Of a DNA stretch of 64,000 nt, positions 5,711 through 16,032 are shown piece by piece. The position numbers and the translations under genes are program-made. Origin of the DNA: an uncultured Planctomycetota bacterium (GTDB lineage Bacteria > Planctomycetota > Planctomycetia > Gemmatales > Gemmataceae); assembly GCA_963849325.1 (NCBI GenBank), contig CAWKHF010000006.1, forward strand, positions 224,001-288,000. Direction: 5' to 3'. Positions within the stretch are counted from its first letter, which is position 1; each line of letters begins with the position of its first letter. The notes below the pieces were generated by a model, which did no database searches, had not been told where the DNA came from, and saw only the letters and a program-made list of their open reading frames with translations.

Positions 5711-7171
5711 ATGAATCCCTTCCACGAATACGTCCGCAACATCACGCGCCGCCAGTTCTTCGCCGCCGGCGCCAACGCCGTCGGCTGGGCGGCGCTGGCC
5801 TCGCTGCTGGACGCCGACCGCGCCCACGCCGGCATCACCAGCACGACGCCGGCCGCCCAGACGCACTTTCCCGGCAAGGCCAAGCAGGTCATCTACCTGC
5901 ACATGGTCGGCGGCCCGCCGCAGATGGACCTGTACGACTACAAGCCGAAGATGCAGCGAGTGGTTACGACAAGGACCTGCCCGACTCCGTCCGCATGGGC
6001 CAGCGGCTCACCACCATGACCAGCGGCCAGGCGCGCTTCCCCATCGCGCCGTCGAAGTTCAAGTTCGCCGCAGCACGGCAAGTCGCGGCATGTGGGTGAC
6101 CGAGCTGCTGCCGTGGACGGCCAAGATGGTCGATGACATGTGCTTCATCCGCAGCATGCACACCGAGGCCATCAACCACGAGCCGGCCATCACCTACATG
6201 CAGACCGGCAACCAGGTCACCGGCCGGCCCTGCCTGGGCGCCTGGGCGTCCTACGGCCTCGGCTCGCTCAACCAGAACCTGCCGACCTTCGTCGTGCTGG
6301 TCGCCAAGCCGACCAACACCGAGCAGGTGCAGGCCATCTCCGCCCGGCTGTGGTCGTCGGGCTACCTGTCCGGCGAACACGCCGGCGTCTCCTTCCGCAC
6401 CAGCGGCGATCCGATCCTGTACATCAACAACCCGCCCGGCGTCACCGCCGACGTCCGCCGCAAGACGCTCGACGGCCTGAACGCCGCTCAACGAGATGAA
6501 CTACCGCGCCGTCGGCGACCCGGAGACGCACACGCGCATCCAGCAGTACGAGATGGCCTTCCGCATGCAGGCCAGCGTGCCGGAGCTGACCGACCTGGCC
6601 CGCGAGCCGGAGTCCACCTTCAAGCTGTACGGCGACGAGGCGAAGAAGCCGGGCACGTTCGCCAACACGGTCCTGCTGGCGCGCCGCATGGTCGAGCGCG
6701 GCGTGCGCTTCGTGCAGATCTACCACAACAACTGGGACACGCACGGCAACGTCGCCGGCCGGCTGCCCGACCAGTGCCGCGACGTCGATCAGGCGTGCTA
6801 CGGCCTGATCCAGGACCTGAAGAAGGCGCGGCCTGTTCGACGCGACGCTGGTCATCTGGGGCGGCGAGTTCGGCCGGACGATCTACTCGCAGGGCGGCCT
6901 GACGAAGCAGAACTACGGCCGCGACCATCACCCGCGCTGCTTCACGATGTGGATGGCCGGCGGCGGCTCGCGGCCGGGCACGATCTACGGCGAGACCGAC
7001 GACTTCTCCTACAACATCGTCAAAGACCCGGTCCACATCCACGACTTCCACGCCACCGTGCTGCACCTGCTGGGCTTCGACCACCAGCGCTTCACCTACC
7101 GCTACCAGGGCCTGGACCAGAAGCTGACCGGCGTGGAGCCGGCGCGGGTGGTCAAGGAGTTGCTGGCGTGA
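5711..7171 (+). CDS. DUF1501 (sulfatase-like) protein, frameshifted
   Basis: TRRQFF Tat-like start, [33 protein letters not shown]; usual PSD1 partner. Confidence 0.9.
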
Positions 7172-7189
7172 TGGCGCGTTATCGGTTAA

Positions 7190-7245
7190 CGGAGCCCGCA
7201 GCGTCAGCGAGGGAGCTTCGGCCCTCGCTGACGCTGCGGGCTCCG
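7190..7245. repeat. REP-like perfect hairpin between convergent genes
   Basis: CGGAGCCCGCAGCGTCAGCGAGGG / CCCTCGCTGACGCTGCGGGCTCCG. Confidence 0.8.
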
Positions 7246-7267
7246 AGGAGAATGGATCAACCCTCGC

Positions 7268-7672
7268 TCACCCGCGGGCCCCGAGCATCTTCTGAAACCT
7301 CGCCAGCACGGCTTGCAGATACTCTGGCTCCACCGGCTTGAGCAAGTGCATGTCGATCCCCGACTCGGCACAGCGCCGCCGGTCTTCCGCCTGTCCGAAG
7401 CCGGTCACGGCGATGACCAACGGCGTCTTGCGCGGGCGAGGGCCGATCAGCCGTCGGGCCACCTCGTAGCCGCTCATCCCCGGGAGACCGATGTCGAGCA
7501 GCACCACGTCCGGCTCGTGGGTCCGTACGCTCTCCAGAGCGGCCGGGCCATTCGCCACGGTCTCCACGACGTGCCCGTACATGCGGAGCAACATCGCCAG
7601 GCTCAGGGCGCCGTCGGCGTTGTCTTCCACGACGAGGATGTGCAGCCCGGCACCATTGACGGGGGCACTCAT
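7268..7672 (-). CDS. Single-domain response regulator (receiver)
   Basis: [28 protein letters not shown]. Confidence 0.9.
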
Positions 7673-7952: not shown

Positions 7953-8726
7953 ATGCCAACCGCGAAACCACCCCCCGCGCAGCCCACCAACCGTCTTCTG
8001 GCCCTTCTGCCGCCAGCCGAGTACCGGCGCCTTTCCGGCCACCTGCAAACCGTCTCCCTACCCGTGAAGCAAGTCCTTTATAAAGCCCGCTCGCCCATCG
8101 ATTACGTTTATTTCCCCGTCCGAGGCATCGTCTCGGCCATGACGATCATGGCAGACGGCCGGGCCATTGAGGTGGCCACGATCGGCAACGAGGGCATGGC
8201 GGGCCTGACGGCCTTCATCGGCGGCGAATCGTCGGCCAACGAGGTGATGGTGCAAGTGTCGGGCGAGGCCGTGCGGATGAGGGCGGCAACGCTGACCGAG
8301 GAGTGCGGCCGGGACGGCCCGTTACGACGACTCCTCATCCTCTACAACACGGCCTTTGCCACGCAGGTTTCGTACTCGGTGGCCTGCAACGGCCTGCACA
8401 AGGTCGAACAACGCTGCTGCCGTTGGCTGCTGATGACGCAAGACCGCGTAGGCTCCGACGTGCTGCCGCTCACGCATGAGTTTCTGTCGATCATGCTCGG
8501 CGTGCAGCGTTCGAGCGTCACGGAGGTCCTACATCCGCTCCAGGAACGGGGCCTGGTCCGCAACAGCCGGGGCCAGATCACGGTGAGGGACCGCCCCGGC
8601 CTGGAAGCCACTTCCTGCGAGTGTTACCGGGTCGTCAAGGACGAGTTCTCCCGCCTGTTCGGCTCCCAAGTTTCGCCGCGACGCGCAGCGGAGCGCGAGA
8701 CGCGCTCCGCTGCGCGTCGCGGCTAA
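7953..8726 (+). CDS. Crp/Fnr-family transcriptional regulator
   Basis: NRLLALLP, EVATIGNEG, LTHEFLSIMLGVQRSSVT HTH. Confidence 0.9.
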   Translation: MPTAKPPPAQPTNRLLALLPPAEYRRLSGHLQTVSLPVKQVLYKARSPIDYVYFPVRGIVSAMTIMADGRAIEVATIGNEGMAGLTAFIGGESSANEVMVQVSGEAVRMRAATLTEECGRDGPLRRLLILYNTAFATQVSYSVACNGLHKVEQRCCRWLLMTQDRVGSDVLPLTHEFLSIMLGVQRSSVTEVLHPLQERGLVRNSRGQITVRDRPGLEATSCECYRVVKDEFSRLFGSQVSPRRAAERETRSAARRG

Positions 8727-8728
8727 AC
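8670..8728. repeat. REP palindrome family A, supplies Crp stop codon
   Basis: GCCGCGACGCGCAGCGGAGCGC arms; copies at 34407, 35777, 38586. Confidence 0.85.
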
Positions 8729-8740
8729 GAAGTGGTGCGC

Positions 8741-9133
8741 TCACGAAGCGTTGACAACGTCCGTCCCCCGAGACGGTTTGCGTTTCCGCGGTCGGACGCC
8801 GCCACGTTTACTACCAGGAGGCGGAGGGACGGGACTCGGCGACGGTTCGGAGGGGACTTCGCGCAGCGCGACGATGTTCAGCCAGTGGCGAAACTCCAGC
8901 GTGCGCAGGCAGAGCGGACAGCGCAGGCGCGGCAAGTGCTCGTGGAAGAACGCCTTGACGCGCAGCCGGATCGTACGCACCGGACAGGGCGCGTGCGGGC
9001 ACGTCCACTCGCCCTCGAAACACGCCGGATGATCCGGTTTGTCGGCCGGTACTTCCGTATAAATGCGATCCATCAAGGCGCTGGCCGGCTGCACGCCCTC
9101 CAACGGCGGCACTACGCGGTAACATTTCGTCAT
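8741..9133 (-). CDS. Hypothetical Cys-rich protein (possible Zn ribbon)
   Basis: CPHAPC and CPLC motifs; ATGA overlap with upstream HTH gene. Confidence 0.55.
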   Translation of the reverse strand: MTKCYRVVPPLEGVQPASALMDRIYTEVPADKPDHPACFEGEWTCPHAPCPVRTIRLRVKAFFHEHLPRLRCPLCLRTLEFRHWLNIVALREVPSEPSPSPVPPPPGSKRGGVRPRKRKPSRGTDVVNAS

Positions 9134-9348: not shown

Positions 9349-9414
9349 GAGTGACCTGAAGAAAAAACTCGTTCGCGGACGTTGGCTGGGATCGACGCGC
9401 GGAAAACAATCCCG

Positions 9415-9443
9415 AGGATACTGTACAATTGTTCATGTTGCAA
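9415..9443 (-). promoter_or_regulatory. Putative sigma70 promoter for HTH gene; -35 lies in the IS target duplication
   Basis: Minus strand TTGCAA-17 nt-TATCCT. Confidence 0.45.
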
Positions 9444-9540
9444 GGGCTTTGTTGCCAAACTTCCGCTTGTTGCAAAACCGATCCGGTTTGTCGCAAAACC
9501 GTCCGCCTGGAGAACTGGCAACAATTGTTGACAATTCGGC

Positions 9541-9569
9541 TTGACACATATACAGATGTTGGGTAATTT
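9541..9569 (+). promoter_or_regulatory. Near-consensus sigma70 promoter inside IS left end
   Basis: TTGACA-17 nt-TAATTT. Confidence 0.7.
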
Positions 9570-9576
9570 CTTTCCT

Positions 9577-9895
9577 GGACAATCCGCAGACTCAGGATGA
9601 GTCCGGCAGATGATTCGCTATAGAGGGTTGTGGTCTTTGCCGAAGGCTCCGAGAGCCGAACTGGCGATTGTCCGTGCCGCAGTAGGCGAAGTGGATTCAT
9701 AAGATTGCCCAGGCGAGCCTGCTGTGAGAACGTGACGAAGTGCCGCATCGGTAGGGCGAATTCTCCCCCCGCCCGCGCTTCTCTTTGAAGCAGTCTATTG
9801 CTGGCGCGAAACCACGAGAGCAAGGGGAATAACAGTACCCTTGACCAGTGGCTTTGCGCCGATTTCTTCTTTGGCCACTGGCAAGGGAAAGCCAG
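9577..9895 (+). ncRNA. Candidate structured non-coding RNA / leader carried by the IS
   Basis: Starts at the expected +1; GGACAATC/GATTGTCC closes a multi-hairpin domain; further hairpins to 9895; no convincing ORF. Confidence 0.45.
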
Positions 9896-9904
9896 AGGCC
9901 AATC

Positions 9905-10132
9905 ATGTATCGCAAATCTCGTCAAGTAACGGAACTGCTCGGTATCAGCTATTGGAAGCTGGTTTCGATGCTGCGCTCCGGTAAGCTCCCACAGCCACAG
10001 AAAGACGCGAGTGGCGACCTGATATTGTCTAGCCGCGATGTTGCCAATGCGCGTAAGGCGCTGGGGATCGACCGCCGCAAGCGGCCACGGCCTCGGAGTG
10101 CCATCATCACAGGCCCGGAGGATGGTAGATAG
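9905..10132 (+). CDS. Small MerR/excisionase-like HTH protein (IS cargo)
   Basis: 75 aa, RQVTELLGISYWKL...GKLPQPQKDASGD..DV wHTH pattern. Confidence 0.65.
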   Translation: MYRKSRQVTELLGISYWKLVSMLRSGKLPQPQKDASGDLILSSRDVANARKALGIDRRKRPRPRSAIITGPEDGR

Positions 10133-10192
10133 GGAAAAGACCCGGCAACGTCGGCCACCAACTGACAGGAAGGAACCGACGCGCCGGGGAGT

Positions 10193-10278
10193 GCGGGCGT
10201 GGCGAAAATGGTAAACGCAGCGGTTTAGCAAACCGCCGTGGTTTTCACCACTTGGGAGTTCGATCCTCCCCGCCCGCA
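10193..10278 (+). tRNA. Class II tRNA with Leu-type body and AGC (Ala) anticodon
   Basis: 7-bp acceptor GCGGGCG/CGCCCGC, D arm GCG-AAAATGGTAAA-CGC, anticodon arm GCGGT-TTAGCAA-ACCGC, long V arm, T arm GGGAG-TTCGATC-CTCCC, A73; CCA not encoded. Confidence 0.9.
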
Positions 10279-10444
10279 TTTCTTTCTTACGTTCTTTTTC
10301 GGACTTTGAGAAGTTGAAAAGCCTAACGAGCGAACCTTGCGGTTGCTCGCCGCCGGCGTAATCGTAGCGCAATTGAAGGGTATCTGTAGTCCGCTTCTCG
10401 GTCAAAGACGCATGAAAAAAATAGACCCAAACCCATTGCTGCCA

Positions 10445-10473
10445 TTTACTTGCATCGATCTCCTGTATATAAT
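10445..10473 (+). promoter_or_regulatory. Putative transposase promoter
   Basis: TTTACT-17 nt-TATAAT followed by hairpin GCCTCCG...CGGAGGC. Confidence 0.5.
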
Positions 10474-10609
10474 TACAGCAGACAAAAAGAAAGCCTCCGC
10501 CGTTGCTAGTAACAACGCCGGAGGCAGATGCAACCGGCGCGGTAACGCCAGAAGCACCCTCGAAAGCCATTCTAGCGTTCCCGCCCCGGACAGGGGAAGG
10601 GAACAATCC

Positions 10610-11863
10610 GTGGACATCCGCGAACAGAAAGCCGTTGAGCTTGCCGACCGAGGCCGCGTCGTCAAGCGGCCGAACGGTTGGCTCATCTACTCCCTTAACA
10701 GCTCCGAAAAGTATTTCGTCACCGTGTTGCCACTGTCCTGTACTTGCGCGGATTTCGAGCTGCGGCAAGAGCCGTGCAAGCATGTCCTTGCCGTGCAAAT
10801 TACCCTGTCCCGTGAAGCCAGCGGTTCTCTCACCGAGCAGAGCACGGAGACGCCGCCGATCAACTGGCCGCGAAAAACCTACCAACAGGATTGGCCGAAC
10901 TACGACGCCGCGCAGGAAAACGAGAAAAGAGAGTTTCGCTATCTCTTGTCCGACTTGTGCAGTACCATTCCGCAGCCCGAACCCAAGGGCGGGACGAAGG
11001 GCGGCAGACCGGCCGCGCTTCTGTCCGACGTGATTTTCGCCAGCGTCTTCAAGGTCTATTCGGGCCTGTCCGGTCGGCGTTTCAACACCGACCTGGAAGA
11101 AACTCAAGAGCGCGGCTTCGTCTCTGCCGTCGTTCACCACAGCAGGATTGCCCGTTGCCTGGAGGACGAGGAAACAACTCCGCTCCTCGTCCGCCTCATC
11201 GAAGCGAGCGCTCTGCCGTTCCGGGCCATTGAGACGGAATTCGCCGTGGACAGCAGCGGCTTTTCGTCGTGCAAGTTCGACCGCTGGTACAGCGTCAAGT
11301 GGGGCCGCGTCATGTCGAAGCATTCGTGGGTCAAGGTCCACGTTATCTGCGGCAGTACTACCCACGTCGTTACCAGCGTCATCGTCGGGACCAAAGACTC
11401 TTCGGATGCTCCGCAATTCGCTCCCCTCGTAAAGACGACGGCCCGAAACTTCACCATCGGTCAAGCGAGCGCCGACAAGGCGTATGCGTCGGCCGAAAAC
11501 TTTGAAATCGCGGAGGAGTGCGGCGGCACTCCCTACATCGCCTTCAAGAGCAATGCGACGGGAGCGGTCGGCGGCGTTTATGAGCGCATGTACCACCTGT
11601 TTTGCTTGAACAAGGAAGACTACCTCCACCATTACCATCGACGAAGCAACGTGGAGTCCGTCTTCAGCGCCGTCAAGCGCCTGTTCGCCGACGCCGTGCG
11701 GAGCAAGCACGAAACCGCGATGAAGAACGAGGCTCTGTGCAAGCTGCTCGCCTACAACATTACCCTGCTGGTTCACGCGATCTACGAGCTTGGTCTTGAG
11801 CCTCGGTTCGCGGATGAACACGACGAACCCCCTTTCATCTTGCCGATGGTTCGGCCCGGTTAG
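10610..11863 (+). CDS. DDE transposase with N-terminal SWIM zinc finger
   Basis: CTCADF...CKH (SWIM); DSSGF, ADKAY, YHRRSNVESVFSAVK (Y-2-R-3-E-6-K); GTG start after purine-rich RBS. Confidence 0.92.
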   Translation: MDIREQKAVELADRGRVVKRPNGWLIYSLNSSEKYFVTVLPLSCTCADFELRQEPCKHVLAVQITLSREASGSLTEQSTETPPINWPRKTYQQDWPNYDAAQENEKREFRYLLSDLCSTIPQPEPKGGTKGGRPAALLSDVIFASVFKVYSGLSGRRFNTDLEETQERGFVSAVVHHSRIARCLEDEETTPLLVRLIEASALPFRAIETEFAVDSSGFSSCKFDRWYSVKWGRVMSKHSWVKVHVICGSTTHVVTSVIVGTKDSSDAPQFAPLVKTTARNFTIGQASADKAYASAENFEIAEECGGTPYIAFKSNATGAVGGVYERMYHLFCLNKEDYLHHYHRRSNVESVFSAVKRLFADAVRSKHETAMKNEALCKLLAYNITLLVHAIYELGLEPRFADEHDEPPFILPMVRPG

Positions 11864-12091
11864 CGGCTCCGGGGTTTTGCAACAGAATACCGGCCTGTTG
11901 CTAAACTGCTGATCCTGTTGCAAAACCTCTGTTGCTAAACTGGTTTGGCAACAAAGCCATGTTGCAAGAGAAAAAAATTGACTGCGGACGGATGGCGCGA
12001 GGTGGCACGAAATGGCGGCAAATGACAGGAAGGGCGGGGACCGGACTTCGTTTTGCCCGAGGGGACGGCTACCATGAGCGGGGAGGTGAGT

Positions 12092-12385
12092 ATGAATGAA
12101 TTACCCGCTCCGCCGGATGCGGCCGGCGATCCCGAGTCCGTGGAACTGCTGCGGGCCTGGGTCGTGCGCGAGACGCTGCAATGCTCGCTGCAAGCCGATG
12201 TCTTCCCCGACCCCGGCACCTGGGGCGCCGTCCTGGCCGACGTGGTTCGCTACGTCGCCAGCGCCGTCGAGCAGCAGGACGGCACCCCCGCCGCCCAGAC
12301 GGCTCGGCGCATCCTCGATGTGTTCGCCGAGGAGATGCGCTCCTCTCCCGATGAAGGAGCGACCCCCACAGAGCCTGAAGCGTAA
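12092..12385 (+). CDS. DUF5076-like small protein
   Basis: GGAGGT RBS; ELPAPPDA...ELLRAW...PGTWGAVLADVVR pattern. Confidence 0.7.
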   Translation: MNELPAPPDAAGDPESVELLRAWVVRETLQCSLQADVFPDPGTWGAVLADVVRYVASAVEQQDGTPAAQTARRILDVFAEEMRSSPDEGATPTEPEA

Positions 12386-12421
12386 GCGAAGAGTATCCCT
12401 TCTTCGCTTACGCTTCAGGCT
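12372..12421. repeat. REP palindrome family B
   Basis: AGCCTGAAGCGTAAGCGAAG / CTTCGCTTACGCTTCAGGCT; copies at 19530, 59193. Confidence 0.85.
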
Positions 12422-15937: not shown

Positions 15938-16032
15938 GGGAGCGTTTGCACCTCTGGTGGGGGCCCTGGTCTTCAAAACCAGTGGCGGGTTTGAACAAAG
16001 CTCGCTGTGGGTTCGATTCCCATACGCTCTCG
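15938..16032 (+). tRNA. selC: tRNA-Sec (anticodon TCA)
   Basis: 8-bp acceptor GGGAGCGT/ACGCTCTC, 5-bp T stem, TGGT D loop, CTGGT-CTTCAAA-ACCAG, long V arm, G73. Confidence 0.92.

Follow-up and report, generated by a model that had tools for sequence, protein, structure and literature searches.

A transposon-borne leucine-type tRNA with an AGC anticodon in a planctomycete, and relatives that differ in their anticodons

The window analysed here is a stretch of 64,000 nucleotides (C6:224001-288000 of genome G000) from a soil planctomycete of the Gemmataceae, the genome of which comprises 8.16 Mb in 14 contigs with 65% G+C and is 84.7% complete. Pfam matches to PSD1 and DUF1501 genes in the host point to the Planctomycetota. 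The window contains an insertion sequence (IS) of 2514 bp, at positions 9445-11958, which encloses a gene for a tRNA with a leucine-type body and an alanine anticodon, together with a small open reading frame (ORF) and a transposase gene. The features of the element are, from left to right:

9435-9444, no strand: left copy of the target-site duplication ATGTTGCAAG, 10 bp, the identical 10 bases being present at 11959-11968
9445-9460, plus strand: left terminal inverted repeat, 16 nt, 100% complementary to 11943-11958
9449-9501, plus strand: left subterminal repeats, three copies of the motif TGTTGCNAAAC, which also brackets the related element L001
9905-10132, plus strand: small cargo ORF of 75 aa from the ORF list, weakly similar to helix-turn-helix (HTH) proteins
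10141-10190, plus strand: conserved leader directly 5' of the tRNA, with the inverted repeat CGTCGG/CCGACG
10193-10278, plus strand: tRNA, a 7/5 cloverleaf with a class II leucine-type body, A73, G3:C70 and the anticodon AGC at 10227-10229
10445-10473, plus strand: promoter-like site between the tRNA and the transposase, TTTACT, 17 nt, TATAAT, 10 of 12 matches
10494-10526, plus strand: conserved hairpin in the transposase leader, with the loop region GTTGCTAGTAAC and compensatory stem changes between copies
10607-11863, plus strand: transposase with SWIM zinc finger and DDE_Tnp_1 domain, 418 aa from the GTG at 10607
11873-11942, plus strand: right subterminal repeats, motif TGTTGCNAAAC
11943-11958, minus strand: right terminal inverted repeat, pairing with 9445-9460
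11959-11968, no strand: right copy of the target-site duplication ATGTTGCAAG, matching the left copy

The tRNA was called by ARAGORN at 10192-10279 with the anticodon agc, and it matches Rfam RF00005 over 10193-10278 with 53.3 bits (gathering score 29, E 1.2e-8, model positions 1-71 of 71). The acceptor stem of 7 bp (GCGGGCG/CGCCCGC) includes G3:C70 and is followed by the discriminator A73, and CCA is not encoded. The D arm has a 3-bp stem with an A13.A22 mismatch and possesses A14, A15, G18 and G19, the anticodon arm consists of a 5-bp stem (GCGGU/ACCGC) and the loop U-U-A-G-C-A-A, the variable arm has a 5-bp stem (GUGGU/ACCAC) with a single unpaired U ahead of U48, and the T arm has a 5-bp stem and the loop UUCGAUC. 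Every structural detail listed in the original prediction, which was made from the letters of the window, was found by these programs and by direct reading. The Rfam E-value, along with the covariation among six homologues described below, indicates that the tRNA is more than a chance resemblance. The minimum-energy fold of the single sequence (-40.9 kcal/mol, z -3.74) is not a cloverleaf and was not used as evidence. Of the features expected in a tRNA-Ala only the anticodon is present, the molecule having G3:C70 instead of G3:U70 and a long variable arm. The features of a tRNA-Leu are a long stemmed variable arm, a 3-bp D stem, A73, A14, A15:U48 and the placement of G18G19, and all of these were found; a leucine anticodon (NAG or YAA) was not, either here or in any of the eight members of the clade to which this tRNA belongs.

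The inverted repeats, the 10-bp duplication and an empty site in the same-genus genome G107 (contig C264), where both flanks abut and the related target sequence is present once, define a 2514-bp element that has moved recently, and they bear out the first description of the tRNA as IS-borne. This is almost certainly a real tRNA within a mobile insertion sequence. The subterminal TGTTGCNAAAC repeats are likely to be binding sites of the transposase. Besides the transposase the element encodes only the 75-aa HTH-like ORF, and no synthetase, in line with the earlier proposal, by which the host could charge the tRNA without any extra enzyme. The 75-aa ORF resembles Pfam HTH_17 below threshold (E 0.061), and it has neither an NCBIfam match nor a second copy in the genome (tblastn).

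A search for homologous tRNAs next to SWIM-DDE transposases, which the original prediction had proposed, proved productive. Eight homologous class II, A73 leucine-type tRNAs were found, seven of which adjoin a related transposase, the exception being L130, which has no transposase within 1.5 kb. They carry seven different anticodons, UUA occurring twice:

this window: AGC
L081, metagenome, with the same acceptor stem as the window tRNA: GUC
L046, in G084: CCC
L053, in G046: UUA
L116, a second element in G046: UCC
L010, genome collection: UUA
L127, in G189, same genus: UUC
L130, in G001: UGG

The window tRNA is 82% identical to that of L046, and copies within the clade differ by up to about 40%. 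The six clade tRNAs that were aligned first provide the figures on covariation, invariance and variability. In these, 98.7% of the stem cells are paired and 17 of 25 pairs show changes on both sides, a value reached in none of 500 shuffles, and the slid controls fell to 43-63% paired. The anticodon stem is 100% paired, with changes on both sides in three of its five pairs. The nucleotides U8, A14, A15, G18, G19, A21, U33, A37, A38, U48 and A73 are invariant in the six, and the loop Y-U-NNN-A-A lies in the same register in all relatives. The RNA structure is very probably under purifying selection. By contrast, the anticodon triplet has a mean pairwise difference of 0.69, tying for the most variable triplet of the tRNA, compared with 0.23 for the unpaired core, 0.35 for paired positions and 0.6-0.73 for those columns of the variable-arm loop that hold more than one sequence. 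The comparison of these sequences indicates that the anticodon behaves as unconstrained and varies as freely as the variable-arm loop, and these figures do not support a claim of positive diversifying selection. The whole core of a working tRNA is thus conserved in the clade while the three anticodon bases drift freely.

A covariance model of the clade was run over 151 family genomes, and the 30 best loci were inspected, with a further 1414 weaker matches behind them. Among these 30, 27 are canonical tRNA-Leu(UAA) genes with the loop C-U-U-A-A-A-A and no transposase nearby, and the only IS-type copies are those of G000, G046 and G084. The window tRNA can be aligned column for column with canonical Gemmataceae tRNA-Leu(UAA), sharing its D-loop length, its placement of G18G19 and the single unpaired base before U48; it is 59-67% identical to three of these and 39-50% identical to the host tRNA-Ser and tRNA-Tyr. 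The set A73, A14, A15:U48 and G18G19 placement is common to six IS-borne copies and the three canonical tRNA-Leu. By sequence, the Gemmataceae tRNA-Leu(UAA) is the nearest canonical relative, and a tRNA-Leu(UAA) is the most likely ancestor of the clade. The alignment supports the leucine-type identity proposed at the outset. The label of an Ala-to-Leu tRNA stood in part: the anticodon is indeed AGC, but AGC is not a conserved trait of the lineage. Since the anticodon varies freely, the Ala-to-Leu character is incidental to a wider phenomenon. The earlier interpretation was right on the anatomy and the mobile context but incomplete. What stands out is less the change from Ala to Leu than a whole lineage of leucine-type tRNAs, carried on transposons, that varies freely at the anticodon alone.

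The transposase belongs to a large family, 3576 relatives at E<=1e-10 having been obtained among 7999 candidates scored. Pfam matches were found to SWIM (3.8e-08) and DDE_Tnp_1 (5.2e-21), and the best of seven weak NCBIfam matches to IS4/IS5/IS1182-type models was that to the IS5-family model NF033579 (103.4 bits, with a cut-off of 140). The gene starts 329 nt downstream of the tRNA on the same strand. The cargo of the family was surveyed at 84 loci, across phyla, from genome and metagenome collections; these loci omit the closest transposase relatives (83% identical), and the metagenome scan, made with a single protein, gave four loci. At 19 of the 84, ARAGORN called a tRNA that precedes the transposase gene by 136-448 nt and has the same orientation, and by a rough estimate such a position would be occupied by chance at well below 1% of the loci. 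In many of the transposase-linked tRNAs the body and the anticodon do not correspond. Bodies resembling tRNA-Ser (G73, long variable arm) carry the anticodons GCA, UAA, UUA or UAG, those in the acidobacterial copies of the family having GCA, UAA and UUA, and class I bodies were found with the serine anticodon GCU. One of the latter lies in the host itself, the genome of which contains one intact transposase paralogue (C5, 48% aa identity) and six fragmentary ones. The tRNA of the C5 paralogue (G000 C5:716836-716909; class I, A73, anticodon GCU, Rfam 60.3 bits) is at the homologous position upstream of the transposase, with a homologous leader in front of it, and class I GCU tRNAs also precede the transposase in L010 and L037. 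In L001, the transposase of which is 69% identical, the TGTTGCNAAAC end motif flanks a Ser-like tRNA(UAG) on both sides, which makes it a second tRNA that is demonstrably internal to an element.

Other observations were made on the tRNAs of this family. Two odd tRNAs are situated near fragmentary transposase copies in the host (G000 C6:448564-448636 and C2:189639-189710); one of them, beside a transposase remnant, combines G-1 with the anticodon GGU and with GUG at positions 35-37, and the second, of class I and 72 nt long, bears the ochre anticodon UUA. Ahead of the Leu-type UUA tRNA of the G046 element, by 500 nt and on the other strand, there is a 96-nt class II tRNA with the glycine anticodon GCC (L053:337-432, minus strand, the same as L118:4003-4098). 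In the acidobacterial copies an ORF of 143-192 aa lies directly upstream of each Ser-like tRNA (L019:1484-1990, L030:1554-1982, L041:1472-2047, L050:1535-1981 and L028:1508-1981, plus strand), and none of these ORFs matched a Pfam family.

The 50-nt leader in front of the tRNA is kept in the C5 paralogue, L001/L131, L127 and L081 despite the differing tRNA bodies behind it. Although this sequence has been kept, changes on both sides were seen in just 3 of its 14 predicted pairs, and a hairpin structure of the leader is not established. Between the tRNA and the transposase lies the promoter-like sequence, which L003, L004, L081 and the C5 copy have also retained; a scan of 9400-12050 gave this one sigma-70-like site, 0.6 being expected in shuffles. 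The hairpin of the transposase leader keeps its loop GTTGCTAGTAAC irrespective of the anticodon. Upstream of the GTG, the frame of the transposase contains no stop for some 90 codons, back to an ATG at 10412 and a TTG at 10337, and this open stretch (10337-10606) spans the promoter-like site and the conserved hairpin. Many relatives of the transposase in databases are annotated as about 65-100 residues longer, and the upstream frame may be an N-terminal extension or a conserved non-coding leader.

The reading that we favour, with a probability of about 0.55 for the whole, is that the tRNA is an intact tRNA-Leu-type cargo of a recent IS, maintained by selection, charged with leucine and competing at GCU codons. 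In this mechanism the left part of the element would supply the transcript of the tRNA, which might be shared with the HTH-like ORF, host enzymes would process it and add CCA, and the host leucyl-tRNA synthetase (LeuRS) would charge the product with leucine. The charged tRNA would then compete with the host tRNA-Ala(GGC) and tRNA-Ala(UGC), both of which are in the genome, causing low-level substitution of leucine for alanine at GCU. This is a minor codon of the host (8.5 per 1000 codons, 7.7% of alanine codons). Taken separately, charging with leucine appears probable, and measurable decoding of GCU as leucine in vivo has slightly under an even chance. LeuRS of E. coli relies on A73 and on tertiary elements (A15:U48, the placement of G18G19) and not on the anticodon. 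The free drift of the anticodon is likely due to bacterial LeuRS ignoring it, as any change there would still leave a chargeable tRNA. According to passages of two papers, tRNAs of anticodon-blind synthetases that carry non-cognate anticodons decode in E. coli in accordance with their identity elements (PMC5389517, PMC7609411). Moreover, passages of other reports describe tRNAs with A at the first anticodon position as translationally active in E. coli (bioRxiv 10.64898/2026.05.15.725136) and tRNAProA, which also has the anticodon AGC, as mistranslating alanine codons (PMC11415595).

The suggestion that A34 becomes inosine is doubtful, since at positions 35 and 36 the loop departs from that of tRNA-Arg(ACG), on which the specificity of TadA is centred. 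Some flexibility of TadA is left open by passages in the literature.

Several points weigh against leucine charging and decoding at GCU. Upstream of the tRNA the scan of 9400-12050 detected no consensus promoter, the sole sigma-70-like site being downstream. The anticodon evolves like an unconstrained loop, which a non-decoding role also predicts. The tRNA is an optional cargo, as ARAGORN placed one at no more than 19 of the 84 loci and as L003 and L004 share the transposase leader and carry no tRNA. The AGC version was found by BLAST in no other of 252 family genomes searched, and the clade anticodons GUC (Asp) and UUC (Glu) would be costly if efficiently decoded with leucine. In addition, the leucine identity rules applied here are by analogy those of E. 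coli LeuRS and may not be the planctomycete ones. Some irregular tRNAs, in the passages of PMC5389517 concerned with their activity, were charged yet unused in translation, and others were inactive.

The main alternative, possible though rather less likely, is that a tRNA-shaped RNA, charged or uncharged, serves the IS and is not used by ribosomes. It could act as a processing or insulation point for RNase P/Z between the cargo transcript and the transposase mRNA, as a regulator or sensor, or as a decoy. Such a role would account for an anticodon that varies like an unconstrained loop. The fixed place of the tRNA upstream of the transposase and on its strand in the 19 loci, the leader conserved directly in front of it even where the class of the body differs, and the promoter-like site that the transposase has of its own downstream of the tRNA are consistent with this explanation, as are passages of PMC5389517 in which irregular tRNAs are charged but unused in translation and regulatory or transposon-linked roles are suggested. 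However, processing by RNase P/Z is independent of the anticodon arm, yet this arm is fully paired in the clade, with both sides changed in three of five pairs, and U33, A37 and A38 are invariant. Furthermore, A73 and the leucine-identity positions of the D loop and the Levitt pair survive many substitutions in the stems. The tRNA-less relatives retain the transposase leader, which argues that expression of the transposase is independent of the tRNA.

It is improbable that the tRNA is a decaying passenger, that is, a host tRNA-Leu(UAA) which was captured, suffered mutation of its anticodon and is now a pseudogene heading for loss. It would fit that tRNA-Leu(UAA) genes are the closest canonical relatives, that the AGC version occurred in this one alone of the 252 family genomes searched and that the cargo is optional. 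Nevertheless, all five helices have been kept by long-term purifying selection in six copies with a divergence of as much as about 40%, the core nucleotides are invariant and the stems of the window copy are undisrupted. In a decaying gene changes would be expected everywhere and not just in the anticodon and the variable-arm loop.

Charging by another synthetase (AlaRS, TyrRS, SerRS or a dedicated enzyme), with no substitution or a different one as the result, is very unlikely. The identity rules of planctomycetes may differ from those assumed, but the eight relatives all have A73 and carry anticodons of six amino acids or stop, which fits no anticodon-reading enzyme. TyrRS requires a GUA anticodon, which is not present here, A73 differs from the G73 of the host tRNA-Ser, and no synthetase is encoded in the element. 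A dedicated enzyme exists for tRNAProX (passages of PMC11415595), and AlaRS, by the rule given in a passage of PMC7609411, needs G3:U70 where the window tRNA has G3:C70.

That the AGC anticodon is an error of an indel-prone assembly, in which the host leuS is spread across frames and a DUF1501 gene is split and in which runs of TTT and AAA flank the anticodon, is extremely improbable, since one indel in either run would give a 6- or 8-nt loop and not the canonical 7-nt loop, which stands in register with seven relatives from independent assemblies, and since the element shows no damage in its transposase ORF, its inverted repeats or its duplication.

Three further ideas were tried and rejected. 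A private recoding of the transposase of the element was not upheld, its four GCT codons aligning with A, F, P and A in the C5 paralogue; six of nine AGC/AGT codons of the C5 paralogue align with Ser, and GCT as Leu is unsupported. The anticodon arm (10218-10238) is 81% complementary to the subterminal repeat, and this was treated as chance. The possibility of a mimic of the element ends was dropped because L001 shares the end motif and its Ser-like tRNA arm is dissimilar; in the stretches examined for other clade members no copy of the end motif (<=1 mismatch) was found outside the tRNA. Finally, pairing of the anticodon sequence UAGCAA with the loop UUGCUA of the leader hairpin was discarded, the loop being conserved whatever the anticodon and also in copies that have no tRNA.

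To our knowledge, few natural tRNAs break the rule that links codon to amino acid, namely the allo-tRNAs and tRNAProX. According to passages of PMC5389517 (Mukai et al. 2017), the allo-tRNAs and irregular tRNA polycistrons of soil Acidobacteria resemble the present case in combining an anticodon-blind identity with diverse non-cognate anticodons, including those for stop codons. They differ in having a 12-bp acceptor branch of 8/4 or 9/3, whereas the window tRNA is 7/5 (7-bp acceptor, 5-bp T stem), and in their Ser, Ala or His identity, as against a leucine-type one here. The terms 'LeuRS' and 'tRNALeu' are absent from the main text of PMC5389517, as is 'Planctomyc', and none of four words, 'Planctomycetes' among them, occurs in the single supplement file that was searched. 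Its hosts are Acidobacteria, whereas the host here belongs to the Planctomycetota and the carrier is defined by its ends, a target duplication and an empty site. The same paper mentions one overlap of irregular tRNAs with a transposon-related ORF, and in a passage of it a link to transposable elements is speculated upon. The host tRNA with G-1, the GGU anticodon and GUG at 35-37, found by a transposase remnant, matches the His-type 'tRNA1' of PMC5389517, which suggests that the loci of that paper and this IS family overlap. The allo-tRNA paper also stresses toxin-antitoxin neighbours, and here none of these families was found in the 126 of 176 upstream ORFs (>=55 aa) that were scanned with Pfam, those of L037, L018, L052, L073, L048 and L083 having been left out. 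Six of the 126 had a Pfam match at E<=1e-4, to Peptidase_M20, DUF1294, LpxC, S1, Peptidase_M78 and DUF1664, the last being below its own cut-off.

The system of tRNAProX and ProRSx in Streptomyces and Kitasatospora likewise joins the body of one identity to the anticodon of another amino acid, as passages of PMC11415595 describe, and its tRNAProA has the same AGC anticodon with A34 and mistranslates when expressed in E. coli. That system differs in its proline identity, A33, A15-A48, G21 and a dedicated, co-encoded synthetase (PMC11415595, in the same passages). The window tRNA, on the other hand, has U33, A15:U48, A21, a class II body and an IS as carrier, with no synthetase in the element.

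Two further comparisons can be made. The proposed principle is the same as that of the leucine nonsense suppressors, two clade members carrying the ochre anticodon UUA: anticodon mutants of E. coli tRNA-Leu remain chargeable by LeuRS and insert leucine at the new codon. The suppressors, however, are laboratory point mutants of chromosomal genes and not a natural, diversifying mobile lineage, nor are they missense readers of Ala, Asp, Glu, Gly and Pro codons. The tRNAs of phages and of tRNA arrays also travel with mobile DNA; these are generally cognate and supplement codon usage, whereas here the body and the anticodon are mismatched and the carrier is a 2.5-kb IS. Literature searches, subscription journals being outside their scope, turned up no published account of IS-borne tRNAs.

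To the known exceptions the present lineage adds leucine, as the third identity of the anticodon-blind kind and housed in an ordinary 7/5 cloverleaf, as well as a new phylum and a mobile carrier that has precise limits and bears evidence of having transposed recently. It may be suggested, tentatively and with the odds against it, that a widespread soil family of SWIM-DDE insertion sequences, present in Planctomycetota, Acidobacteriota and others, is a vehicle for working 'anticodon-shuffled' tRNAs which exploit anticodon-blind synthetases, those for Leu here and for Ser and perhaps His elsewhere. If this were true, each copy would be a mobile and heritable module that reassigns or blurs one codon, stop codons included. 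Such modules could persist by damaging codon-atypical invaders, by diversifying the proteome under stress or by benefiting the element. If the tRNAs are charged and used, insertion sequences would spread codon ambiguity and stop-codon suppression horizontally, with relevance for changes of the genetic code, for the costs that mobile elements impose and for the search for compact orthogonal-like tRNAs. If instead translation makes no use of them, they would be tRNA-derived elements of a new class, in the service of a transposon.

As regards the assembly, the host locus of the essential leuS (G000 C6:455532-458237) is broken across several reading frames, and the DUF1501 gene of the window is split between two ORFs that overlap and differ in frame (6090-6902 and 6496-7341). 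Indel errors are probably numerous in this assembly, so that apparent pseudogenes, the 'fragmentary' transposase copies included, need to be read with caution. No canonical class II tRNA-Leu(UAA) or tRNA-Leu(CAA) was called in the host genome (85% complete). Three dense tRNA arrays were found in it, at C1:515629-516193 (7 genes), C4:433741-435175 (13) and C12:838476-839555 (12), and these include 74-nt 'Leu' tRNAs (CAA, UAA) without a long variable arm. A selenocysteine tRNA is located in the window at 15938-16031 (plus strand), 4 kb from the IS (Rfam tRNA-Sec 72 bits; ARAGORN anticodon tca). The window also contains a REP-like palindromic repeat of about 50 nt with perfect arms of 21 nt, at 12372-12421 and at about 8663-8748, hundreds of copies of which are present genome-wide and which occurs in same-genus genomes as well.

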